Virus record (IMG/VR): IMGVR_UViG_3300031953_000287
Span: 1 to 42,732 of that record
DNA: 42,732 nt
From: a virus
Lineage: Duplodnaviria > Caudoviricetes
Reading direction: 5' to 3' (one strand)
The stretch's first letter is position 1. Each line of letters starts with the position of its first letter. Positions 11,457-39,589 of this stretch are shown in pieces. A program made the translations under genes and the position numbers. Below the pieces are notes generated by a model. That model saw nothing but the letters and a program-made list of their open reading frames with translations, was not told the DNA's origin and ran no database searches.

Positions 11457-11522
11457 AATTTTTAACTCCTCCACCCTTATAGTCTTTTACCCCTACAAGT
11501 GCTTACTTTATTTTTGTTAGTT

Positions 11523-12462: not shown

Positions 12463-12505
12463 TTTAATACCTTTAAGTTCTTTCCACTCCATGTAATTCA
12501 TCTGT
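12463..12505. repeat. 43-bp direct repeat (37/43 with 12997-13039): relic of the gp7 3' end
   Basis: Encodes QMNYMEWKELKGIK; the other copy encodes QMNYTEWKALKGIKQ; gp7 ends IPSTTYPEWKKFKNIV. Confidence 0.8.
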
Positions 12506-12512
12506 GGAATAT

Positions 12513-12538
12513 AAAAAAGACACCCTTGTGAGCGTCTT
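12513..12538 (-). terminator. Intrinsic terminator of cassette 1
   Basis: AAGACGCTC-ACAA-GGGTGTCTT followed by a T-run. Confidence 0.75.
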
Positions 12539-12680
12539 AATTGATTCTAATTGCAACTTTTATATTTACATTTTTAGTTATGAATTTTATATAGCTTGAA
12601 ATATCTAATCCCAGTTCAGCTGCATCTTCTTTTATCTTGGAGTATTCTTCATTTGTTAATCTTACGTTTAGAGTAGCCAT
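12537..12680 (-). CDS. 47-aa ribbon-helix-helix protein (cassette 1)
   Basis: MATLNVRLTNEEYSKIKEDAAELGLDISSYIKF..; starts 2 nt after the upstream stop. Confidence 0.75.
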   Translation of the reverse strand: MATLNVRLTNEEYSKIKEDAAELGLDISSYIKFITKNVNIKVAIRIN

Positions 12681-12682
12681 TA

Positions 12683-12892
12683 TTAAACACCAAATATTGA
12701 ATTTTCTTCTACACATTCTGGTGCTTTTATTTCTATGTGTATTTTATCAAGTAGCATTGCTAATTCTTCTTTTTCTATTAACATTGCATCAAATGTTTCT
12801 TTATCCATTGTAGCCACTTCATTGTTAATATTTTCTCTTGCTTCATATAAATTGTTGTATATAACTCTCAATTCTGTTTTATTAAATTCCAT
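12683..12892 (-). CDS. 69-aa acidic protein ending EENSIFGV (cassette 1)
   Basis: ORF track; RBS GAGGGG; own promoter. Confidence 0.75.
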   Translation of the reverse strand: MEFNKTELRVIYNNLYEARENINNEVATMDKETFDAMLIEKEELAMLLDKIHIEIKAPECVEENSIFGV

Positions 12893-12938
12893 TTTTAATA
12901 TCCCCTCTCATGTAGGTTATTTCCTAACCTCTAAGTAT

Positions 12939-12967
12939 ATTGTACTGCTAATTGCATTACATGTCAA
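12939..12967 (-). promoter_or_regulatory. Sigma-A promoter with overlapping inverted-repeat operator (cassette 1)
   Basis: TTGACA-17-TACAAT; TGTAATGC-N5-GCAGTACA at 12941-12961. Confidence 0.8.
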
Positions 12968-12996
12968 GAGTTATTTAAAATATATTTTATTTATTG

Positions 12997-13039
12997 TTTA
13001 ATGCCTTTAAGTGCTTTCCACTCTGTATAATTCATTTGT
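12997..13039. repeat. 43-bp direct repeat, second relic of the gp7 3' end
   Basis: 37/43 identity with 12463-12505. Confidence 0.8.
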
Positions 13040-14105
13040 TAATAGTTAAGATGTATTCTTTCAACTGTTCTTCTGTATTATTTCTAGTCCCATACGCATG
13101 ATGGAAACTGCCTTTAACACATGGGTTGTGGCAATTATTGCATAATGTTATACCATTCTCTAAGTCAAGTCTTAATTCTTTATACTTTGAAAAGTTATAT
13201 ATGTGGTGTGCTTGTAAATTGCCACCTCTTTTGTCTCCACAACATTGACAAGTATAATTATCTCTTTTGAATATTTCTTTTCTCCATGATGTAACTTTAT
13301 AATTTTGTCTTTCGTTGTTTGTTGTTGTTATCATTTTATCCCAGGTGCAAAATTTACAACCAATTCTTTCAGAAAGTTTATTATATGACCTATATTGTAT
13401 ACCTACTTTTTTATGGTTAGGACATATATAAGCCAAAGGTGTACTTGCGTTAATATAATTTTTATCTATAAGTATCAAGCCGGCTTTAGTAAAAGCACTC
13501 TTAACTGTCTTATAATCTAATTTTTGTTTTAAATGTGCTTTATGTGCAGAACATTTAGGGCATAAAAAATCTTTTTTTAAAGGCGCTTTACCCTCATAAC
13601 CGCATTCATAACAAACAAAGTCTATTTCTGTATAACCTTTTTTAATAATTCTTTTTTTAAGCATCATCCTATTCTCATATAATCTGTTTGAAATTTCTTC
13701 ATTAGTAATTCTCCTAGCAGATACTTTTCCTATATGGTAAGCCTTGAAAATTTTCCCCATTGCTTTTCTTCTCTTGGGATTGTTTTCCCATTGTGTTTTT
13801 ATAGCTTCTCCGCCTTGTCTTATAGGCACGTTATAATAAGTTAAAAAGCTTTTAACACTTCTGTTATTTTTAGTTTCTAACAATTTCATTATTTCCCTAA
13901 ATGATAATCTTTCGTTTACATATTTTTCAGTAATCCATTTTCCCATGTCTGCTATATTAAACTTTGTTTCATATTTTTTTATAGTTTCTATTGTCATAAA
14001 ATTACCTTTACATTTATGAGAACAAAAATGGTTTTTATATTCTTTTAGCTTCGAATTAGAAATTTTAATCTCTTTTTTACAATAATCACATTCTGTAAAC
14101 GGCAT
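13032..14105 (-). CDS. HNH homing endonuclease with multiple Zn-finger/DNA-binding repeats
   Basis: WRKEIFKRDNYTCQCCG..LQAHHI..NGITLCNNCH. Confidence 0.88.
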   Translation of the reverse strand: MPFTECDYCKKEIKISNSKLKEYKNHFCSHKCKGNFMTIETIKKYETKFNIADMGKWITEKYVNERLSFREIMKLLETKNNRSVKSFLTYYNVPIRQGGEAIKTQWENNPKRRKAMGKIFKAYHIGKVSARRITNEEISNRLYENRMMLKKRIIKKGYTEIDFVCYECGYEGKAPLKKDFLCPKCSAHKAHLKQKLDYKTVKSAFTKAGLILIDKNYINASTPLAYICPNHKKVGIQYRSYNKLSERIGCKFCTWDKMITTTNNERQNYKVTSWRKEIFKRDNYTCQCCGDKRGGNLQAHHIYNFSKYKELRLDLENGITLCNNCHNPCVKGSFHHAYGTRNNTEEQLKEYILTINK

Positions 14106-14149
14106 AATATCAACTCCCTACCTATATTATACCACATCTACAATTGATA

Positions 14150-15079
14150 CTAAACAATATTTTTAAATTTTTTCCATTCCGGGTAAGTTGTGGATGGTAT
14201 TAATATCGTTTTGCCTTGCTCGTCTCTAGTTGCCCTTAGTTTTGGTGAAAGTCCATCTATTTCATAATACATTGAACAGCGACAATTCACGTCATCCGAA
14301 GCATTTGATAGGCTCCCGGGCGCTAACCCATAACCACCTATGTCGGATTTGAAATTCTCATTAACTCCAATCTTTTTACCATCTAAACTCTGATGTGAAT
14401 TTCTAGTCTTACTGTCAAGTGTAGCATCCCACACCTTAAGCATTACTATTCCCATTGCATCCGCTTTTATCCCAGCTTCTAGTCTACCTTGATTTAATAC
14501 TCTGTGCGTTTCTGTTTGCGCAACTCTAATTGCCTTACTTGCATCACCATCAAGCTTACTTTTAATTCTCTTTGCTATCTTGCCATAACCCTCACCCCTA
14601 ATAAGCCCTTGTGTGACCTCTGACTTGATATTGATTATAATGTCACCTCTATGCTTTTCTAATCGTTCTGATAGAGTCAAGCCCGATATAGGGTTTTCAA
14701 TTGAAGCGGTTATTGTGTCCATATTAATCATAGCAAACTTTAAATTAATCATTGCTTCTGTTTCTATAGCATACCCAGCTCCTAGATAGGCTTCATTGTA
14801 TACATTGTGCAATAAGCCTTTAATACCTTTACCATTACTTTTATAAACCTTGTCTAGTTTCTTACTTAGTTCATCATTCAAAGCCTTTAGGCGGTTATAT
14901 TTAGCCATTTCGCTATATGATAAAGTTCCATCCTTAGAATACTTTTCATAATACATTGCTAACGAACTTCGCATTTCTTTTAAGGCTTTTGAGAACTCTT
15001 TTATAATTTCTTTCTGTGTGTTTTTGCTCATTTTTTCGATTGCTATATCTGTTGCGGATAACTTGCTATTGAGTGACAT
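14150..15079 (-). CDS. Minor head morphogenesis protein (SPP1 gp7 / Mu gpF family)
   Basis: RVAQTETHRV..KVWDATLDSKTRNSHQSLDG..VNCRC. Confidence 0.92.
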   Translation of the reverse strand: MSLNSKLSATDIAIEKMSKNTQKEIIKEFSKALKEMRSSLAMYYEKYSKDGTLSYSEMAKYNRLKALNDELSKKLDKVYKSNGKGIKGLLHNVYNEAYLGAGYAIETEAMINLKFAMINMDTITASIENPISGLTLSERLEKHRGDIIINIKSEVTQGLIRGEGYGKIAKRIKSKLDGDASKAIRVAQTETHRVLNQGRLEAGIKADAMGIVMLKVWDATLDSKTRNSHQSLDGKKIGVNENFKSDIGGYGLAPGSLSNASDDVNCRCSMYYEIDGLSPKLRATRDEQGKTILIPSTTYPEWKKFKNIV

Positions 15080-16424
15080 TTGTATCAACTACTTTATCTA
15101 AGTTAACTGTATCATCCTTTTGTTCCTCTGCTATTGTGTCCATCTCATATTGTATATCTTCGACGAATGGTAACTGTGCAAGTAGTGTCCTGTCAGATAC
15201 AATACCTTTGAACTTAGTTGCTACATCACCCAAATAAGAGAGGTCTACTGGTATACTTCTTTTAAATGTGAAAAATAGATCCAAATAATTCAGCGGAACT
15301 CCTTTAGTATTCCAAGCACTACAAATAACTTTAAACATTTCTCTTAATCCAGTACCAAACTTTCTTTCTTTTGTAATTGCTTTAAATTCTAATACTAATA
15401 GTTTCCACTTTCTACTCTCACCACTCATAGTAGCACCGGAGAATGTTTCGTCTGACATATCAACACTTGAACTAAATTTATATATGTTTTCGTTTAAAGT
15501 TCTTTTATGATCCTCTAAAAATGTATTGTTAATGTTTTTAGTGATAAACCCGGCATCCGCATTTTCCGGCAAACTAAAGGCTCCTGTGTTTTGTGCTTGT
15601 AGTTTAGTTTCTGCATCTATTTCACACCCTATAAACTTCATATACGCTAATCTAAATTCTTCTAATTCATTTTGACTATCAGAAACTATCCTATCATAGC
15701 TATCAATTAAGTTTTCTACCTTGTCACAATCGCCCTGTTCTTCACTGTTATTTAAAAACTCTATAATGGGCATATAAGCAAATTGGTGTGCTTTTTCTTC
15801 TACAACAACAAAGTCTGATTCTCCATTGTTAGAATAAGTAACAAATTTAGTACTATCATAGAACTCTACATTTGTAACCTCTTTACCCTCGACATTAAAT
15901 GTATTGTAAATATAAAATGCGTATTCTATATCGTTCTTATTATTTTTAAGTGCGATAACATCCCAAGGATTAATATTAATAACCTTTTCAAATCCCTCTA
16001 AGTCGATATAACACAGCCTGTAAGCTTTCCCACATATGGCTTGAAGCTTTCCTGTCTCACTGTCTAAATCAGCAAGGTTATTCATTACATTAAATTCGCT
16101 TAACTTTAAATTAAGTGTTTCAAAGGTACTATCATTATATAGTGCTTTGTCTATTTGATAACTAATAGGCTTACCGAATACATAACCCATTGATTGCAAA
16201 ACAATAGTTCCTCTATAATCATCATTTATTTTATTATTAACTTTTGTAGCATCATCGAACTTTCTATCCTGGATAAGAAGTTCCTCTGCTTTGAATTGAC
16301 TATATTTCTTTTTTAAATTAGCACTAACAAATGCAAAATCTTCTAATAACTCTTTTAACATTTCAGAGTTCATTGGTAAACCCGATTTTAATTGTGCTAA
16401 TATTTTGCTTTGTATATCTGTCAC
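15066..16424 (-). CDS. SPP1-type portal protein
   Basis: NNKI..GYVFGKPI..PIIEFLNN..LIDSYD..SGESRKWKL. Confidence 0.93.
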   Translation of the reverse strand: MTDIQSKILAQLKSGLPMNSEMLKELLEDFAFVSANLKKKYSQFKAEELLIQDRKFDDATKVNNKINDDYRGTIVLQSMGYVFGKPISYQIDKALYNDSTFETLNLKLSEFNVMNNLADLDSETGKLQAICGKAYRLCYIDLEGFEKVININPWDVIALKNNKNDIEYAFYIYNTFNVEGKEVTNVEFYDSTKFVTYSNNGESDFVVVEEKAHQFAYMPIIEFLNNSEEQGDCDKVENLIDSYDRIVSDSQNELEEFRLAYMKFIGCEIDAETKLQAQNTGAFSLPENADAGFITKNINNTFLEDHKRTLNENIYKFSSSVDMSDETFSGATMSGESRKWKLLVLEFKAITKERKFGTGLREMFKVICSAWNTKGVPLNYLDLFFTFKRSIPVDLSYLGDVATKFKGIVSDRTLLAQLPFVEDIQYEMDTIAEEQKDDTVNLDKVVDTNVTQ

Positions 16425-16451
16425 TTAATCACCCCTTTTGCTTTGCATATA

Positions 16452-16781
16452 TTAATTACTCATTAAAAATCCTTCATCTTTGAAAGCATCTGCTACAAGT
16501 TCATAATAAGAATCAACTTTCATTTTAGGTCCTTTTAAAATTCTTTTTAAACTTTCCTCATTTTCAGCAACTACTATATGTCTTTCGTTCTTTTCCATAA
16601 CAAAATAATATTTCATTTTAACACCCCTCTGTTGTATTTTATTAATAGTTTCCCATATTGCTAAATTATCTACATCTTTGTTAGCTTCTAAATCTTTTAT
16701 TCTATCTTCTAATAAACTAATTCTTTCTATTTGTATAGTGATTACTTCTGATAATGTTCTTTTTCTAATTGGTACATCCAT
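16452..16781 (-). CDS. Hypothetical protein with a possible second in-frame start at 16616
   Basis: RBS-like AGGGGTG before both ATG 16781 and ATG 16616. Confidence 0.5.
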   Translation of the reverse strand: MDVPIRKRTLSEVITIQIERISLLEDRIKDLEANKDVDNLAIWETINKIQQRGVKMKYYFVMEKNERHIVVAENEESLKRILKGPKMKVDSYYELVADAFKDEGFLMSN

Positions 16782-17010
16782 AATTAACACCCCTTTTATC
16801 ATTTCTAATTGAGAATATCACCCTATAAACTACATATATGCAATTAAATTCTTACCCAAGGATGGTAGAACCTCACTAAACCCTTTAAAATAGCCATTCT
16901 ATATTTTATAAAAACGTCGTGAAATAGGTTATTTCACGTCGTTATGCAAAACGTACAGTTTCAACCCGTATGTTTTTATATTAAATTATCGCATTTACAT
17001 ATCCCAAGCA

Positions 17011-17757
17011 CTAGCTAGTAGCTTTTCTAACTGCGACAATTCTCTCATTCGCTATATTAAAATAGCCTGTATCAAGTTCAAACCCTATAAATCTACGGTT
17101 TGTATTAATGCAAGCTATCATTGTACTGGCTGAACCACAACAATTATCTAAAATCGTTTCATTTTCTTCACTATACGTTTTTATTAAATATTCTAATAGT
17201 GGTACTGGTTTTTCAGTTGGATGCATTGGCTTCCTAACTACTCCAAATTCCAAAATATCTCTTGGGTAATTCTCGTATTTTTGAACAGAATTCTTTGTAG
17301 CAATACCGTAATTTGTTCCACCGGCGCCTCTATCCTTTTTGCCTCTACTACCTTTGTTAATAGTAGGTACAGCCTTTTCAATTAATCCTTGAGGATTATA
17401 TATAGGTATTTTTTTATAAAAAATCAATATGTTTTCATGTGCCTTTAAAGGCATTTTCTTTGAGTTTAAAAATCCTGTTGATTTATTTTTCTTCCATATC
17501 CACTCATATTTTAACTGTTTTAAATTACTATTTCCAAGTGTTTTATCGAAAGGAGTTTGAGCAAATAAAGCAATACAACCATTTTCTTTTATTATTCTTT
17601 CGTATTGTTTCCATAAAAGAGGTAAATTAATAACGGAATCCCATTTATTTTGAGTAGTTCCATAAGGTAAATCACATAATATCATATCAATAGATTTATC
17701 AGCAATATCTTTCATACCCTCTAAACAATCCATATTATATATCTTATCAAGTTCCAA
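17011..17757 (-). CDS. N6-adenine/N4-cytosine DNA methyltransferase (beta class), orphan
   Basis: DLPYG..HPTEKP..ILDNCCGSAST. Confidence 0.92.
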   Translation of the reverse strand: MELDKIYNMDCLEGMKDIADKSIDMILCDLPYGTTQNKWDSVINLPLLWKQYERIIKENGCIALFAQTPFDKTLGNSNLKQLKYEWIWKKNKSTGFLNSKKMPLKAHENILIFYKKIPIYNPQGLIEKAVPTINKGSRGKKDRGAGGTNYGIATKNSVQKYENYPRDILEFGVVRKPMHPTEKPVPLLEYLIKTYSEENETILDNCCGSASTMIACINTNRRFIGFELDTGYFNIANERIVAVRKATS

Positions 17758-17771
17758 TTAATCACCTCATT

Positions 17772-19028
17772 TTAATATAATGACTTGGCAGCTTTTACTT
17801 TAGTGGACTTGTTAACATCTTCAAGCGCATATCTTAAAGCATCTAAAATATGATTCTCTCTATCCACCGGAATAGGTAATACATTTCCGTTTTTATCTTC
17901 TTTCCATTTATATTTACTAAATTCTGATTTTGTATTAACACACCTAGGATGTATTATTATTTCTAATCCTTGTAAAAACTTAATACCATATTCAATACTT
18001 CCAGGACCTTTCTTTGCACTTGCTGCATTAACTCTTAAACGTCTAAAGTCAGCCACGGATTTTGGCTCTGATCCATCACATACAACTCTTTCTTTACCTA
18101 TTATATCTAATACTAGCGGTGCTGATTCTTCATTCAATAACCCTTGCACTTCTAATTCATGGCATATATAAAGCCTTTTCCTAGTTTTATCATAATGACT
18201 TCTTATAAATGCAAACGGATCATCACTAAAACCCCAGTCAATTCCATTGTAGTAATTATCAAATGTACTTTCTAACTCTGTAAAATCTTCTACTTTCCAA
18301 TTCTTGAATATTACTGCTCCTAATACACCCCAGTTTCCAAGCGTATATACGGAATAGTAATATAAGTCGCTCTCATTCTCTAGTGCGCTTATATCGTCTT
18401 TAGTGAGGAATGAGTTATCTTTGTATATGGTTTTCAGTATACTTGTATCATTCTTTTCTACATACTTCTTATCATCCTCCCATATATCAAAGTAATTAGT
18501 ATATATCCAGTGATCCTTAAGTATAGGATTGAAACTTAATGTCATTCTCTTTTTAAATTTACTACGACCTCTAAGCCTTTTATCTAATTGTTTAACATCT
18601 TTGTATAAACACTCAGTGCTTTCCTCGATCCAAATATCTGTCAAAACTCCATCTATAGGAGTGATACTTTTAATTTTTTCTACATCATCTAAACCTGCGA
18701 ATAGTATTTGTTTATTATTTAAAGTACAAGTAATAATAAGATCTGTTTTATTAATAGTAAAATACCCACCTAATTTAAAACTACTTATAGCTTTTGTTAT
18801 TTCATTTAGACATGAGCGTTTTATAGTAGCTTGAACATTTCTAACTACTAAGTAATTACGTCCATTGATAACGTCTAATATAGTTCTTTGTGCTAGACTA
18901 TAAGACTTACCGCTACTCGACCCGCCATAATATATCTGATAACGGTTTTGATTCTTTAGCTGATACTTTAAATAAATTTTATTGAATACTTTTGCGTTTA
19001 TGTCTAAGTTAATCAAGTTCCTCACCAT
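17772..19028 (-). CDS. terL: Terminase large subunit (PBSX family)
   Basis: YGGSSSGKS Walker A; IWIEE; SFNP; GIDWGF; NHILDALRYA. Confidence 0.95.
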   Translation of the reverse strand: MVRNLINLDINAKVFNKIYLKYQLKNQNRYQIYYGGSSSGKSYSLAQRTILDVINGRNYLVVRNVQATIKRSCLNEITKAISSFKLGGYFTINKTDLIITCTLNNKQILFAGLDDVEKIKSITPIDGVLTDIWIEESTECLYKDVKQLDKRLRGRSKFKKRMTLSFNPILKDHWIYTNYFDIWEDDKKYVEKNDTSILKTIYKDNSFLTKDDISALENESDLYYYSVYTLGNWGVLGAVIFKNWKVEDFTELESTFDNYYNGIDWGFSDDPFAFIRSHYDKTRKRLYICHELEVQGLLNEESAPLVLDIIGKERVVCDGSEPKSVADFRRLRVNAASAKKGPGSIEYGIKFLQGLEIIIHPRCVNTKSEFSKYKWKEDKNGNVLPIPVDRENHILDALRYALEDVNKSTKVKAAKSLY

Positions 19029-19464
19029 CTATTTTAATAACTACATTATTGTCTAAGGCTCCACTCATTTCGATATCTCGTTTATCTCTCCACTCTTTAG
19101 GTTTACGATTCTTTAACCAAAATATTTGAGCGGTAGTATCGGGAACATAATGCTTTGTGACCCTCTTAGTGACTTCTAAGGCAGTTTCTTTTGTTTCAGT
19201 ATTATATACTGGTTCTTTTGTTACTTCTTCATAGTCATAACCCATAGCACGCTTTAATAGCTTTTGTTCTACTTCGTAGTCTATTACTTCTTTACCGCGT
19301 TTTAGGGCTTCTCTTAAATCCTCATGTTCTACTTTATATCTTGAAAATGTTGACATTACTACATTTAATTTCTTTGCTATTTCAATTTCGATTAGCCCAT
19401 CCTTACACCAATTCTCTATAAGAGGTAACTTTTCTTTTACTGATTCCCATTTACTTTTACCCAA
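19009..19464 (-). CDS. terS: Terminase small subunit
   Basis: N-terminal HTH; LLKRAMGY..PDTTAQIFWLKNRKP..WRDK. Confidence 0.85.
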   Translation of the reverse strand: MGKSKWESVKEKLPLIENWCKDGLIEIEIAKKLNVVMSTFSRYKVEHEDLREALKRGKEVIDYEVEQKLLKRAMGYDYEEVTKEPVYNTETKETALEVTKRVTKHYVPDTTAQIFWLKNRKPKEWRDKRDIEMSGALDNNVVIKIDGEELD

Positions 19465-19810
19465 TGAACTAACCCTCCTTTTATTTGTTCCTTAAATCAT
19501 CTAATACCTCTGTTCTATCTTCATAAGTAGTTGTTGAAGTTTTTAATTGATTCAAGGCTTCATTAATATTTTCTAATACTTTTATTCTATCTGCTAACAT
19601 ATTCATACCAATTGTTAGTGTTCTAATTATTCTTTTTGTTTCACCATCCATATTAACAGCCCCTTATTTCTTTTTAAAAATTATTTTAAGTGAATGAACT
19701 TCTAAATTAAAATTAAACTTACCTACTTTTATATTAATTGTTATGCCCTTCCATATCATAATAAGTAATATCGAATATAGTATAATTTTTATAATGTTTA
19801 CCACCTCTAT

Positions 19811-19906
19811 CTAATTTATAAATAACAATGTAAATACTAATGCTAAACTTAATAATGCATTAATAGCTGGTAATATCATATCTTTGTTCCTTTGAAATAT
19901 ATTCAT
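19811..19906 (-). CDS. 31-aa single-TM peptide
   Basis: RBS AAGGAG; MNIFQRNKDMILPAINALLSLALVFTLLFIN. Confidence 0.45.
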   Translation of the reverse strand: MNIFQRNKDMILPAINALLSLALVFTLLFIN

Positions 19907-20031
19907 TCCAACCACTCCTTATGTACTGTAATAGGTAAAACCATCTATAGCATTACTCTTGTCCTTTAGTTTGCTATTATTCGTTTACTTAAGTGAGATT
20001 CCTTATACTCGCCTATTACAATTATGTATAT

Positions 20032-20061
20032 AAAAAAGAAGCCCTATTTATTAAGGCTTCT
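20032..20061 (-). terminator. Intrinsic terminator of cassette 2
   Basis: AGAAGCCTTA..TAGGGCTTCT followed by a T-run. Confidence 0.75.
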
Positions 20062-20178
20062 ATATCTATCTTCTATTAACTGAATTAACTCTTTTGTTAT
20101 ACTCCTATTATCTTCTTTAGCTATTGCTTGGAGTTTATCTTTAAGCTCCTCTGTACATCTTATATTTAAGGTAGCCAT
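20044..20178 (-). CDS. 44-aa Arc-like ribbon-helix-helix protein (cassette 2)
   Basis: MATLNIRCTEELKDKLQAIAKEDNRSITKELIQLI..; TAATG coupling to the upstream gene. Confidence 0.8.
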   Translation of the reverse strand: MATLNIRCTEELKDKLQAIAKEDNRSITKELIQLIEDRYRSLNK

Positions 20179-20387
20179 TATTCTATCCCAAATATTGATG
20201 TTTCTTCTTTGTCTATTGGATATCTTTCATTTACTATATTGACTAACTTTACCGATAATTTAATTAATTTAATTGCATTTTCCATTTCTTCACTATTTTC
20301 TTCTGCTTTAATGTCTCTCGCTATAGCTGATGCGTCCAACACTGTGCTTACTAGTAATCTCATTTCTTTTTCATTTAAATTTGTCAT
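20178..20387 (-). CDS. 69-aa protein ending EETSIFGIE (cassette 2)
   Basis: ORF track; RBS GAGGGGG; own promoter. Confidence 0.75.
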   Translation of the reverse strand: MTNLNEKEMRLLVSTVLDASAIARDIKAEENSEEMENAIKLIKLSVKLVNIVNERYPIDKEETSIFGIE

Positions 20388-20429
20388 TTTAATTCCCCCT
20401 CATGGCTACTGTTTGCAACCTATAAACAT

Positions 20430-20458
20430 ATTGTAATGCATAACACATTACATGTCAA
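20430..20458 (-). promoter_or_regulatory. Sigma-A promoter with overlapping palindromic operator (cassette 2)
   Basis: TTGACA-17-TACAAT; TGTAATG-N7-CATTACA at 20432-20452. Confidence 0.8.
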
Positions 20459-20483: not shown

Positions 20484-20512
20484 AAAAAAAGTACCTACAT
20501 TGTAAGCACTTT
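20484..20512 (-). terminator. Terminator in the late leader
   Basis: AAAGTGCTTACA-A-TGTAGGTACTTT followed by a T-run. Confidence 0.6.
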
Positions 20513-27954: not shown

Positions 27955-28722
27955 CTAATATGCAACATTAAACTTTTCAATTTGCCCGCTCCTTTTTATT
28001 TTTAAAATACTACTATTATAAACTTGTTGCGCTCTTTGCTTTGTAAAATTACTACTTATTGCAATTTCTTCATAAGTTGCGCCATTCATTTTACTCATAA
28101 GCACCTTATATTCTCTTTCTTTTAATATCTTTTTTATAAATATAAGCATTTCTTTATTACAAATATCATTTACGAGGTTTTCTGTTGCGTCTGTATCATC
28201 CCTAATCCTGTTTATCATATCTTCGCCTGTGCCATTTTCATTTAAATTCACATCCAAACTACATACACTGAGCATAGTTTTTTTAAATGTCTTAATCTGT
28301 TTTTCAGTTTTTCCCGTATGCTCCGCTAATTCTTCAATCGTTGCAACCCTTTCTAGGTCTTGTTCTAGCGCCTTATTTTCTCTTAATATATTGTAATTCT
28401 CTCTAAATGCATGGACAGGAACTCTTATTGCCCTACTGTAATTTTGTATATATCGCACCATATATTCCATTATAAATTTATAAGAGTAAGTACCTAATTT
28501 AACTTTTTTAGTTTTATCAAATAATTGAACCGCCCTCATTAATCCCATATATCCCACTTGCATAAGATCATCCACTTCAACCGTTTCGGATGTTAGTTTA
28601 ATTGCTATTGTTTTAACTAGTCCTACGTTAGCTTCTAAAATATCATTCATAGCAATTTTACAACCGCCCTGTGCCTTACTGATTAACTCTCTTTCCTTTT
28701 CTATAGTTAACAACTCTGCCAT
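27955..28722 (-). CDS. Phage-encoded sigma70-family sigma factor (regions 2, 3 and 4)
   Basis: DDLMQVGYMGLMRAVQLFD..IRVP..ATIEELAE..SLD..TYEEIA..TKQRAQQ. Confidence 0.9.
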   Translation of the reverse strand: MAELLTIEKERELISKAQGGCKIAMNDILEANVGLVKTIAIKLTSETVEVDDLMQVGYMGLMRAVQLFDKTKKVKLGTYSYKFIMEYMVRYIQNYSRAIRVPVHAFRENYNILRENKALEQDLERVATIEELAEHTGKTEKQIKTFKKTMLSVCSLDVNLNENGTGEDMINRIRDDTDATENLVNDICNKEMLIFIKKILKEREYKVLMSKMNGATYEEIAISSNFTKQRAQQVYNSSILKIKRSGQIEKFNVAY

Positions 28723-30884: not shown

Positions 30885-31073
30885 CTATATACTATTAATA
30901 TTTATATTTAGTACCCTAGCTAGTTGTTTCGCTTGAAGTAAACTTATATTTCTGCCATTCTCAATTTTTGAATACTCTTGGGTAGATATATTTAAGTAAG
31001 TTGCAACGTCCTTTTGAAATAATTCTTTTTTTACCCTTGCGAGTTTTAATTCCATTCTTTTCATTTTGTACAC
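30885..31073 (-). CDS. Cro-like XRE HTH regulator
   Basis: LKLARVKKELFQKDVA..YSKIENG; divergent from cI. Confidence 0.85.
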   Translation of the reverse strand: MYKMKRMELKLARVKKELFQKDVATYLNISTQEYSKIENGRNISLLQAKQLARVLNININSI

Positions 31074-31117
31074 CTCTTTCCTTTTCTTGGATTAATTTAC
31101 TATATGTTCTGTAATTT

Positions 31118-31169
31118 CATTATGTGCTTAAAAGTTAAACAAGTCAAGTAAAATTTATCAGAAAGTTAA
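31118..31169 (-). promoter_or_regulatory. Early lytic promoter and adjacent candidate operator
   Basis: TTGACT-17-CATAAT; TTAAC-N5-GATAA at 31155-31169. Confidence 0.6.
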
Positions 31170-31309
31170 AATCTTTTTTCTTAGTAGCGAATTTCGTTCG
31201 CCTTACGCAAACGCACTGTTAAAGTTTAATGAACCTCTCTAAAAAGTGTATCAAATTTTTAACACTCGGATATAATATTAGTAGATTGAAATTTGTGGGG
31301 GGTATTAAT

Positions 31310-31747
31310 ATGGAAAAAGATATAAAAAGTGATGCTGAATTATTGAAAGTGTTTTCAGAAAGAATAAGAATGCTAAGAAAAGAGAAAGGACTTACACTAA
31401 AAGAATTAGAAAAGATTCTCTTAGAGAGATATGAGTTAAAGCAAAGTTATGGAAACTTAGCAAATTATGAGCGTGGGTATAGATCGCCCTATATATTTGT
31501 TTTAAATGCTTTCAGTGATTTTTATAATGTAAGTGTTGACTGGTTGTTAGGAAGAACAGACGAAAGAACAGCTAAAGTTTTACAAACTACAATATTTGAT
31601 GAAGAAAATAATCCTCACGAAGTTAAAATAGCGGTGGATAAAGATTCCAAACTAGCAGATATGCCATTAAAGGATGTTATGAAATTGGTTAAAGAACTCC
31701 AAGAACTGGGAATAGACTTTAATACAATTAAAAAACCTGTCGAATAA
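31310..31747 (+). CDS. CI-like XRE repressor (no S24 peptidase domain)
   Basis: FSERIRMLRKEKGLTLKEL..LANYERG..FYNVSVDWLLGRT; RBS GGGGG before ATG 31310. Confidence 0.9.
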   Translation: MEKDIKSDAELLKVFSERIRMLRKEKGLTLKELEKILLERYELKQSYGNLANYERGYRSPYIFVLNAFSDFYNVSVDWLLGRTDERTAKVLQTTIFDEENNPHEVKIAVDKDSKLADMPLKDVMKLVKELQELGIDFNTIKKPVE

Positions 31748-34094: not shown

Positions 34095-34520
34095 TTATTT
34101 TAAAAGGTCTTTATTCTCGTAAATGTTTCCTATAATTCTAAATCCTTGTAAATGTATTTTTAAATCCAGTATAAAAATTTCGGTTTTATTGGAACTTGAA
34201 TATGAAGTCCATTTTTTAAACCATTGTTGCCTAAAACCTCCATCTTTAAATATCACTTCTGTCCAATCCTTATTAAATATCTCACCCTCTTTATTTTCTA
34301 ATTCTCTTAGCAATATATCACCCTCATATATTTCTACTCCATTTTTATCTTTCAAGCCTGCGTACTGTCCTACTGTATTTGTATCAACTACTATGCAATC
34401 TATTTCAGCATCTTGGTTATAAAAGAATATAGTAGGCTCGGGAATTGTGCAATAGTCACCATAATAAAACCATTTGCCATTATCTTTACTTTTACCTCTA
34501 AACTTTATTTCCCTATTCAT
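34095..34520 (-). CDS. YopX-family protein
   Basis: REIKFRG..GQYAGLKDKNGVEIYEGDIL..IIGNIYEN. Confidence 0.92.
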   Translation of the reverse strand: MNREIKFRGKSKDNGKWFYYGDYCTIPEPTIFFYNQDAEIDCIVVDTNTVGQYAGLKDKNGVEIYEGDILLRELENKEGEIFNKDWTEVIFKDGGFRQQWFKKWTSYSSSNKTEIFILDLKIHLQGFRIIGNIYENKDLLK

Positions 34521-34839
34521 TATTAATATCCCCCTCATTGCTTTTAACATAATCATAAATAGCCATCATTTTTTTAGTTTCAAGTGCATTATCTAACATT
34601 CTTTTATGCCCATGATAACTTGCGTGTTCTTTCCTATCCATAATAATCAAATTTTCTAAGCGGTTATCATCTTTTTCGCCATTTATATGATGTACAACTT
34701 CATTGCTATCTAATTTTCTTCCTAAATATAATTCCATAATATATCTGTGTATATAAACGGTTTTATGATTGACCTCTATTACTCTATGTCCTCCACCTTT
34801 TCTATTGATAGCCAAAGCACTTAATGATAAATCTTTCAT
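34513..34839 (-). CDS. HNH (HNH_3) endonuclease
   Basis: HRYIME..EVVHHINGEKDDNRLENL. Confidence 0.85.
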   Translation of the reverse strand: MKDLSLSALAINRKGGGHRVIEVNHKTVYIHRYIMELYLGRKLDSNEVVHHINGEKDDNRLENLIIMDRKEHASYHGHKRMLDNALETKKMMAIYDYVKSNEGDINNE

Positions 34840-34988
34840 TATTTGATTTCCTCCTTAACTTCATTATTTTTAACATAATCATATATAGCCATTAGTATTT
34901 CACTATTCACCGACCTCTTATTTCTTTTTGCTAGCACTTCTATTTCTTTTTTAAATTCATCATCTATCCTTAGTAATATCTTAGCCAT
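34839..34988 (-). CDS. 49-aa Arc-family repressor
   Basis: MAKILLRIDDEFKKEI..NKRSVNSEIL. Confidence 0.85.
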   Translation of the reverse strand: MAKILLRIDDEFKKEIEVLAKRNKRSVNSEILMAIYDYVKNNEVKEEIK

Positions 34989-35009
34989 AATTATCAACTC
35001 CTTAATACT

Positions 35010-35038
35010 ATTATACTACTAATATGATAGCATTACAA
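35010..35038 (-). promoter_or_regulatory. Sigma-A promoter of the accessory operon with inverted repeat in the spacer
   Basis: TTGTAA-17-TATAAT; ATGCTA..TAGTAT. Confidence 0.7.
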
Positions 35039-35105: not shown

Positions 35106-35265
35106 ATCATGGTAGAGAGTTATAAATTGTGTGAAACAACTATACTAATATAGAGGATAGAACAGGTAGCTATCACCACACAGAAATGTGTTAGGAAATG
35201 TGGAAAGACCGACCACCTATATTAGAAAAGCAACTATATTTGTAGCAAGGTATAGTTGCTTTTTT
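35106..35265 (+). ncRNA. Candidate structured ncRNA (~160 nt)
   Basis: TGnTATAAT 35091-35099; nested stems; GAAA-loop hairpin; terminator 35226-35265. Confidence 0.6.
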
Positions 35266-38651: not shown

Positions 38652-38912
38652 TTATTTATATTGTTCTAGTAATACTCTAACTTTTTCAGCAATGGGTTTA
38701 TTGAGTTCAGAATGTCCTTTTTTATGTGATTCTAAAATAACACCTAACATTAATCTAAGTGTTTCCCTGTCTTTAATCAAAAGTTTAACTTCGTCTAATA
38801 TTTGCTTATTTCCACTCTCTAATAGCTTATTTCTTTTTTGAAAATCTTCGATTACTGATTCTAAACATTTAACTATTGGTAATTTTATATTCCTATTGTC
38901 TTTTATTATCAT
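38652..38912 (-). CDS. Hypothetical coiled-coil protein
   Basis: ORF track; directly follows the AbrB-like gene. Confidence 0.55.
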   Translation of the reverse strand: MIIKDNRNIKLPIVKCLESVIEDFQKRNKLLESGNKQILDEVKLLIKDRETLRLMLGVILESHKKGHSELNKPIAEKVRVLLEQYK

Positions 38913-39062
38913 TTATTTTTTACCATCCTTCTCAATAATTATCTTACCACCTTCAATAGATACATTCACATAGTCGCCTATAAATACACCTATCTCCCTT
39001 AATTCTGTTGTAAGTCTTACCAATGAAGCACCGCCAACTGTTCCCACTTTTCTTTTAGACAT
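38913..39062 (-). CDS. 49-aa AbrB/MazE-fold DNA-binding protein
   Basis: MSKRKVGTVGGASLVRLTTELREIGVFIGDYVNVSIEGGKIIIEK. Confidence 0.75.
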   Translation of the reverse strand: MSKRKVGTVGGASLVRLTTELREIGVFIGDYVNVSIEGGKIIIEKDGKK

Positions 39063-39082
39063 TTATATCACCTCTTTATTAC

Positions 39083-39111
39083 ATTATATACGATATGATA
39101 TGATATAGCAA
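39083..39111 (-). promoter_or_regulatory. Sigma-A promoter of the replication operon with ATATC x3 in the spacer
   Basis: TTGCTA-TATCATATCATATCGTA-TATAAT. Confidence 0.75.
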
Positions 39112-39175: not shown

Positions 39176-39589
39176 TTATTTTATATTATTTACAAAGGTT
39201 TCTACTATATAATTTATAAGTTGGTTACGGCTATAATGTTTTTCTTCACAAATGTGGTCTAGTCTATCAACTAAATCTAATTCCATAACTACATTAAAAG
39301 CTTTCTTAGTTATTTTCTTTTTAGTCTTAGTTGGTATCTTAAATATATCATCTTTAACTAGATTAGTTTTGTTGGCTACTTTTTTAGTCTGTGTAGTTGG
39401 CTTATCTTCAATACTTACATATTGTCTAGTTGCTGAACTGTATACATAACCATTCTTCTTAAATAAATCTGATATAGTACTCTTGTTTAGTTTTAAGTCT
39501 GTACTTATAGCACGTATACTCTCACCATTGGCTAGTCTATTGTTAATATTAGTTACTTCTTCTATTGAAAATTCCATTTGATACATCAC
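39176..39589 (-). CDS. HTH plus C-terminal RHH DNA-binding protein (plasmid-type, possibly partition/copy control)
   Basis: GESIRAISTDLKLNKSTIS..; KAFNVVMELDLVDRLD..SRNQLINYIV. Confidence 0.65.
   Translation of the reverse strand: MMYQMEFSIEEVTNINNRLANGESIRAISTDLKLNKSTISDLFKKNGYVYSSATRQYVSIEDKPTTQTKKVANKTNLVKDDIFKIPTKTKKKITKKAFNVVMELDLVDRLDHICEEKHYSRNQLINYIVETFVNNIK

Follow-up and report, generated by a model that had tools for sequence, protein, structure and literature searches.

Two phage cassettes built on a reusable promoter/operator and ribbon-helix-helix frame with exchangeable small-protein cargo

The viral DNA analyzed here, IMG/VR record IMGVR_UViG_3300031953_000287 (42,732 nt; "the window" denotes this whole stretch), carries two small cassettes in which a promoter overlapped by a palindromic operator precedes a gene for a 69-amino-acid (aa) protein, the cargo (A1 in cassette 1, A2 in cassette 2), and a coupled gene for a ribbon-helix-helix (RHH) protein (R1 and R2, respectively). 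Comparison with other loci reveals that the promoter/operator and RHH frame is a reusable chassis with exchangeable cargo, and that A1 belongs to a new, uncharacterized family of small proteins. The explanation that we favor, with somewhat better than even confidence, is that the cassettes are stand-alone, self-repressed burst operons of a Clostridium-type siphophage, whose cargos most likely target a host protein, probably to counter a host defence.

The chassis and its predicted regulation

Exact scans for the promoter/operator returned 5 viral, 12 metagenome and 8 genome loci, and two looser scans returned 11 and 51 viral loci. The 12 metagenome loci comprise the window's own two cassettes, four phage cassettes and six non-phage loci. 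After merging of duplicates there are 10 distinct cassettes, the window's two included, each with the promoter/operator, one to three small genes and an RHH gene; the other eight with a terminal RHH gene are L001-type, L003, L004, L017, L030/L108, L085, L087 and L032/L123. The first cargos of these 10 cassettes are of eight unrelated kinds, and an all-against-all BLASTP comparison of 17 cargo proteins finds only the pairs A1–L001 and L085a–L108a to be related. The exchange is most direct in L017 and L003: these loci match at 99.3% identity along the 1154 nt that lead to the cargo start codon, after which their cargos are unrelated. Their RHH proteins are 70% identical to each other and 61–64% identical to R2. 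A whole cassette can also be present or absent, as in a close relative of the phage (G003) in which cassette 1 is present and the cassette 2 site is empty.

Within the window, both cassettes lie on the minus strand and have the order promoter/operator, 69-aa open reading frame (ORF), coupled RHH gene and terminator (Table 1). An earlier note on this DNA had proposed this common layout, and inspection of the sequence and ORFs bears it out, with every listed element found at both loci: the TTGACA and TACAAT boxes at 17-nt spacing, the 21-bp operator TGTAATG-N7-CA(G/T)TACA over the spacer, and the closing terminator. Among 45 promoter-like sites between positions 11500 and 21500, only these two promoters reach 11 of 12 consensus matches, and their terminators rank as the top two of the seven in a scan of the same region. 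For the 29-nt promoter/operator pattern, 1.4e-7 occurrences would be expected per window and two are observed, so it is not due to chance. The operator palindrome has two sites in the phage genome, both at these cassettes. The leader hairpins that the note had described are likewise present in both cassettes, but they are weak. The hairpin is kept in four distinct cassettes with one-sided, pair-preserving changes and cannot be made out by eye in the other cassettes; none of its six pairs changed on both sides among the four sequences, which amounts to no two-sided compensation.

Table 1. Coordinates of the cassette elements and of the repeats that bracket cassette 1
Feature	Position	Strand	Remarks
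Cassette 1 promoter, sigma-70/sigma-A-type	12939..12967	-	TTGACA-17-TACAAT; 11/12 consensus matches
Cassette 1 operator palindrome	12941..12961	-	TGTAATG-N7-CAGTACA; covers spacer and -10; predicted RHH site
Cassette 1 leader hairpin	12914..12930	-	AGGTTA/TAACCT; near predicted 5' end; z -2.0
Cargo A1, 69 aa	12683..12892	-	acidic (net -9); ends EENSIFGV; new family of 8 sequences
R1, RHH repressor (predicted), 47 aa	12537..12680	-	MATLNVR...; Pfam NikA-like, E 2e-7, 31.5 bits (cut-off 27)
Cassette 1 intrinsic terminator	12511..12538	-	z -4.9; more narrowly 12538-12517
43-nt direct repeat, upstream copy	12997..13039	-	brackets cassette 1; resembles end of gp7/MuF domain
43-nt direct repeat, downstream copy	12463..12505	-	brackets cassette 1
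Terminator upstream of cassette 2	20488..20512	-	insulates cassette 2
Cassette 2 promoter	20430..20458	-	TTGACA-17-TACAAT; 11/12 consensus matches
Cassette 2 operator palindrome	20432..20452	-	TGTAATG-N7-CATTACA
Cassette 2 leader hairpin	20404..20420	-	GGTTGC/GTAGCC; z -2.2
Cargo A2, 69 aa	20178..20387	-	net -5; orphan; ends EETSIFGIE
R2, RHH repressor (predicted), 44 aa	20044..20178	-	MATLNIR...; Pfam Arc, E 5.9e-6, 26.5 bits (cut-off 20.4)
Cassette 2 intrinsic terminator	20032..20061	-	z -4.0; more narrowly 20061-20037

The coupled downstream gene starting MATLN(V/I)R was also found twice, both times above the Pfam cut-offs. Beyond this common N-terminus R1 and R2 are 27% identical overall, and both are bare RHH domains without a C-terminal neutralizing arm. 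R2 matches Arc/Mnt proteins at 41–50% identity, and the profile search of the RHH proteins also gave weak RelB/DinJ or CopG-antitoxin matches. R1 and R2 are likely to bind the palindromes and to cross-repress both operators. Both are well supported by inference: the operator co-occurs with RHH genes in phages, in bacterial genomes and at a RelB locus, its half-site recurs in relO, R1 and R2 have the same N-terminal strand, the two operators are near-identical, and the genome has only these two operator sites. Outside phages, an RHH-type ORF adjoins the operator in five of eight bacterial genome matches, in other phyla (three of the five score over the Pfam cut-off), and at locus L026 a RelB gene lies directly behind the same operator. 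RelB is an RHH protein with an N-x-R strand, as are R1 and R2. The half-site of Escherichia coli relO contains TGTAATG (PMC2812701). The loose viral scan cautions against over-reading this link, as no RHH gene is nearby at 40 of its 51 loci, 13 of which carry one identical 23-mer. An RHH gene lies within 1.5 kb at the other 11 by a profile built in this analysis, and seven of these are seeds of that profile or near-identical to seeds. The same promoter/operator also occurs at transposase- or TnpB-like genes in unrelated phyla (L007, L038, L040, L041), beside a divergent RHH gene in L038, L040 and L041; it is a widely reused RHH operator.

The cargo proteins and their tail

The two cargos were described in the earlier note as alike only at the C-terminus, which holds, with the correction that the second does not stop at the proposed EE(N/T)SIFG(V/I) tail and ends SIFGIE. 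The profile and structure searches that it called for yielded a new family for A1 and no known family or specific fold for either protein. The A1 family has eight members (A1, six proteins found by exhaustive search and the L001 orthologue) at 41–91% identity, and a profile search added no others. Its invariant columns are L8, V26, A27, F34, M37, E40, K41, K50, F67 and G68, so that conservation covers the hairpin turn as well as the tail, and the linker that joins them is variable. Neither cargo matches a family in Pfam, PHROGs, NCBIfam or PADLOC, or a PDB sequence (best E 0.15); word-index searches with A1 and A2 returned only the queries, A1 has no match among annotated phages and plasmids, and A2 has no relative in the viral contigs, the exhaustive search having been made for A1 only. 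The AlphaFold model of A1 is a two-helix hairpin (predicted local distance difference test score 81; helices 5–21 and 31–56) with a low-confidence tail, and A2, folded alone, is predicted to have the same outline (helices 6–24 and 33–55). Fold searches gave generic hairpins only, with no E below 0.001 and a best Z of 8.0 among helical bundles; in the ESM Atlas the best score was 0.84 for A1, with nothing usable for its homologue P0005.

That the cargos are paralogous, as the note had it, is weakened. Their similarity outside the tail is not significant, although they have equal length and a similar helix layout. Against the A1-family profile with the tail, 30 of 3000 shuffled sequences score as well as A2, compared with 1030–1194 of 3000 once the tail is removed, and hhalign aligns A2 with the family over 13 columns at a probability of 12.8%.

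The tail itself is conserved throughout the A1 family, with FG (F67, G68) invariant in all eight members; what follows FG in A2 and the family is V, I, K, N or IE. P0005 is the one distant A1 homologue with genomic context. Its gene opens an operon under a near-consensus promoter that bears a different operator, and lies in the accessory region of a prophage-like record of 82.6 kb. P0005 keeps the tail although the next gene, starting 43 nt later, is non-RHH. As no RHH gene lies directly behind it, the tail of P0005 is kept for protein-level reasons. Farther along the operon come genes for SNF2 helicase, PAPS-reductase/DUF3440, a ParB-like protein and a methyltransferase, and the last member is a 53-aa ORF with a weak NikA-like match (E 0.009). 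This neighborhood is of a DNA-modification type, which fits counter-defence without proving it. The prophage-like record G001 carries, at L049:5426-19175, a module with Replic_Relax, FtsK and M23 and a long operon (A1 homologue, SNF2, PAPS reductase/DUF3440, ParB-like, methyltransferase and RHH-like genes) between lysis genes and integrase.

The acidic IFG tail is a likely contact with a host protein. A different interpretation is that the tail docks to no target and instead serves for recognition by a protease or is left over from the cargo–RHH junction, A2 being an unrelated body that acquired it by recombination. The fact that A2 scores against the A1 family through the tail alone is as this would predict, and a scan of viral contigs for a C-terminal EExSIFGx-stop, restricted to the EE form, to serine codons TCN and to the stops TAA/TAG, gave 13 matches, of which three are A1 orthologues and 10 are out-of-frame chance matches. 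However, P0005 keeps the tail with no RHH gene directly behind, most C-terminal degrons do not vary at the last residue as these tails do, and A1 and A2 share their length and nearly their predicted helix limits, so that we regard this interpretation as unlikely.

The earlier note had also likened the tail to the QxSLF beta-clamp motif, which fares poorly, as none of the nine tails has a Q. Positions 1, 4 and 5 of the motif are required (QxxLF; PMC12309361). Position 1 is E in seven and A in two of the nine tails and position 4 is I or M, so neither QL[S/D]LF nor QxxLF is matched. The reading of the tail as a variant of the beta-clamp (DnaN) binding motif, by which the cargos would interfere with host replication, draws on its flexible C-terminal location, the resemblance of xxSIF to QL[S/D]LF and the invariant F; with the deviations at positions 1 and 4 and an invariant G that has no counterpart in the motif, we consider it very improbable.

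Proposed function and genomic setting

We propose that, on entry of the phage DNA, the strong cassette promoters would be unrepressed and cargo would be made at once. The translationally coupled RHH protein would then accumulate, bind the promoter palindrome and silence both cassettes, while the cargo would bind a host protein that probably belongs to a defence, the tail being one of the points of contact. For the regulatory half of this model, the shut-off of a strong promoter by the RHH protein, our confidence is high; that counter-defence is the job of the cargos we put forward tentatively, at somewhat less than even confidence. The acr-aca-like character suggested in the earlier note is retained in the cargo-then-RHH order, the operator over the promoter and the exchangeable cargo, but no known anti-defence family appears among the cargos scanned.

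Several observations weigh against the burst-operon model. None of the cargos scanned, drawn from only 10 cassettes and compared without a dedicated anti-defence library, matches a known anti-CRISPR, anti-restriction, other named anti-defence, toxin or structural family, and guilt by association is therefore missing. Net charge spans -13 to +9 among the cargos, and one A1 homologue is neutral. The tail is missing from 14 of 15 non-window cargos examined, being kept only in the A1 orthologue L001; it is conserved within the A1 family but weakened as a mark of the module family. In the window's cassettes the likely ribosome-binding site for the RHH gene is formed by the FG codons, and this second role could help keep FG in A2. 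Finally, the cassettes are located in the packaging/head region, outside any early-gene block and co-directional with their neighbors.

The contig is a whole, terminally redundant 42.7-kb phage (repeat at 42503; G+C 31%). Its packaging, head and tail genes are SPP1-like, and it also encodes a sigma factor, several methyltransferases and two divergent repressors. Its best annotated terminase match is that of Clostridium phage phiCT453A (76%), which suggests a Clostridium-type host. Cassette 1 lies 3' of the gp7/MuF minor head gene and an HNH gene and 5' of the scaffold gene; cassette 2 has a late-activator-like gene on one side and the small terminase on the other.

This gene content allows a second reading of the same self-repressed chassis, in which the cargos do not block a defence system but work for the lysogen or alter the host, for instance by excluding superinfection, by controlling sporulation or growth, or by antirepression. 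The cI/cro-like divergent pair, the sigma factor and AbrB-like genes are consistent with it, as are the occurrence of the cassettes as presence/absence insertions with their own promoter and terminator and the Arc/Mnt similarity of R2; arc-ant of P22 is an RHH-controlled antirepressor operon. Self-repression would, however, hold expression in the lysogen low, and neither cargo has a membrane segment or known domain. We consider such a role rather unlikely, though less so than the other alternatives raised here.

The toxin-antitoxin pair that the earlier note had left as an option, which would be a reverse-order type II system with the RHH protein as antitoxin, is weakened by the exchange data. 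A RelB-type operator, the weak RelB/DinJ or CopG-antitoxin matches and the true RelB gene under the same operator in L026 speak for it. However, R1 and R2, at 47 and 44 aa, lack the arm that would neutralize a toxin, RHH proteins 61–70% identical to one another (R2, L003, L017) stand behind unrelated cargos with no fixed cognate partner, P0005 is present without an R1-like gene, and the fold searches gave generic two-helix matches and no toxin fold. A toxin-antitoxin function is thus very unlikely.

As for mobility, the two 43-nt repeats around cassette 1 are 86% identical and, when translated, look like the MuF domain end, which is where G003 fuses a toxin domain; the observation also takes in positions 14150-14190. 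Modules could be gained or lost by recombination between copies of this kind. PMC5576092 describes MuF polymorphic toxins; its main text does not contain the word "recombination". The window has a short MuF and an HNH gene where G003 has a MuF-ADP-ribosyltransferase fusion and a 52-aa, cysteine-rich, likely immunity gene. In the sister phages the MuF protein, directly upstream of cassette 1, has the ADP-ribosyltransferase domain and EESIFG near its end (residues about 498–503 of the G003 protein, L053:17913-19508). This match may be due to chance, because it is found only in near-identical phages. A bolder proposal would make the IFG tail a new docking motif by which otherwise unrelated proteins (the A1 family, A2 and a loop of the virion-borne MuF ADP-ribosyltransferase) grip the same clostridial host protein, with the RHH chassis, moved by repeats copied from the MuF toxin junction, as a cartridge system for effectors that hijack the host or counter its defences; we regard it as a long shot.

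Elsewhere in the window, the sigma factor gene (phrog_351, RNA polymerase sigma factor) is at 27955-28722 and the cI/cro-like divergent pair at 30885-31747; no integrase was found among 76 ORFs scanned. Additional small regulator units at 34513-35030, 38652-39110 and 39176-39589 comprise an Arc-like RHH gene then an HNH gene, an AbrB/MazE-like 49-aa gene then an 86-aa orphan, and a helix-turn-helix–RHH fusion gene; a promoter-like site precedes each of the first two. The sole Rfam match is a skipping-rope RNA (RF02924, 57.9 bits) at 35146-35224 on the plus strand.

The operator and RHH gene together may serve as bait for small genes that act early in phages of Clostridia, a group with few known counter-defence proteins, and the 15 unrelated cargos gathered in this analysis can be used for testing as they stand. 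Should the IFG tail be a docking motif, it would point to a host protein exploited by several phage effectors; without a target, what stands is a familiar regulatory design around an uncharacterized protein family. No description of the cassette or the tail was found in the literature covered, which left out most subscription papers.

Comparison with known systems

One parallel is the immI arc-ant operon of P22, in which a small phage RHH protein represses its own strong promoter and thereby limits a co-transcribed effector. It differs from the cassettes in its gene order, with arc before ant, in the nature of Ant, which is a large antirepressor, and in having no exchange of cargo. The E. coli relBE operator shares the TGTAATG-containing half-site (PMC2812701), whereas the cassettes have no antitoxin arm and no RelE-like toxin, a reversed gene order and an exchangeable partner. 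The RHH protein Reg576 controls the establishment genes of the Bacillus plasmid p576 (PMC8708921): an RHH repressor acts on several strong promoters of mostly uncharacterized small genes in a Firmicute host, and these genes are transiently expressed on entry, much as we propose for the cassettes. That system is a conjugative plasmid with direct heptamer operators, one repressor gene and the known anti-restriction gene ardC, whereas the cassettes are phage-borne, with a palindromic operator and one RHH gene each.

The closest likeness is to operons of anti-CRISPR (acr) genes with their associated (aca) regulators. As in these, a small gene lies 5' of the repressor gene under one strong promoter, and an inverted repeat overlaps the promoter and is conserved with the repressor. 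A hairpin in the 5' untranslated region just past the start site, as in the cassettes, is likewise described for Aca1, 2, 10 and 12 (bioRxiv 10.64898/2026.07.27.740549). In the same source the RHH protein Aca14 of Pasteurella multocida represses its own and a neighboring anti-defence operon; small variable cargo comes first, the RHH-fold repressor last and an inverted repeat lies over the promoter, and one repressor type matches two operons, as with R1 and R2. The Aca14 operons hold >40 known acr genes, whereas none was found in the cassettes, and as the search of the chassis turned up no anti-defence gene of a known kind, we do not file the cassettes as an Aca family. Aca14 also has a long helical extension, for which R1 and R2, bare RHH domains of only 44–47 aa, have no room, and no conserved RNA motif; its host phylum differs from that of the cassette phage, and the proteins were compared by description only. 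With these differences noted, the cassettes appear to work like acr-aca operons, with the RHH-type Aca14 system as the nearest analogue.

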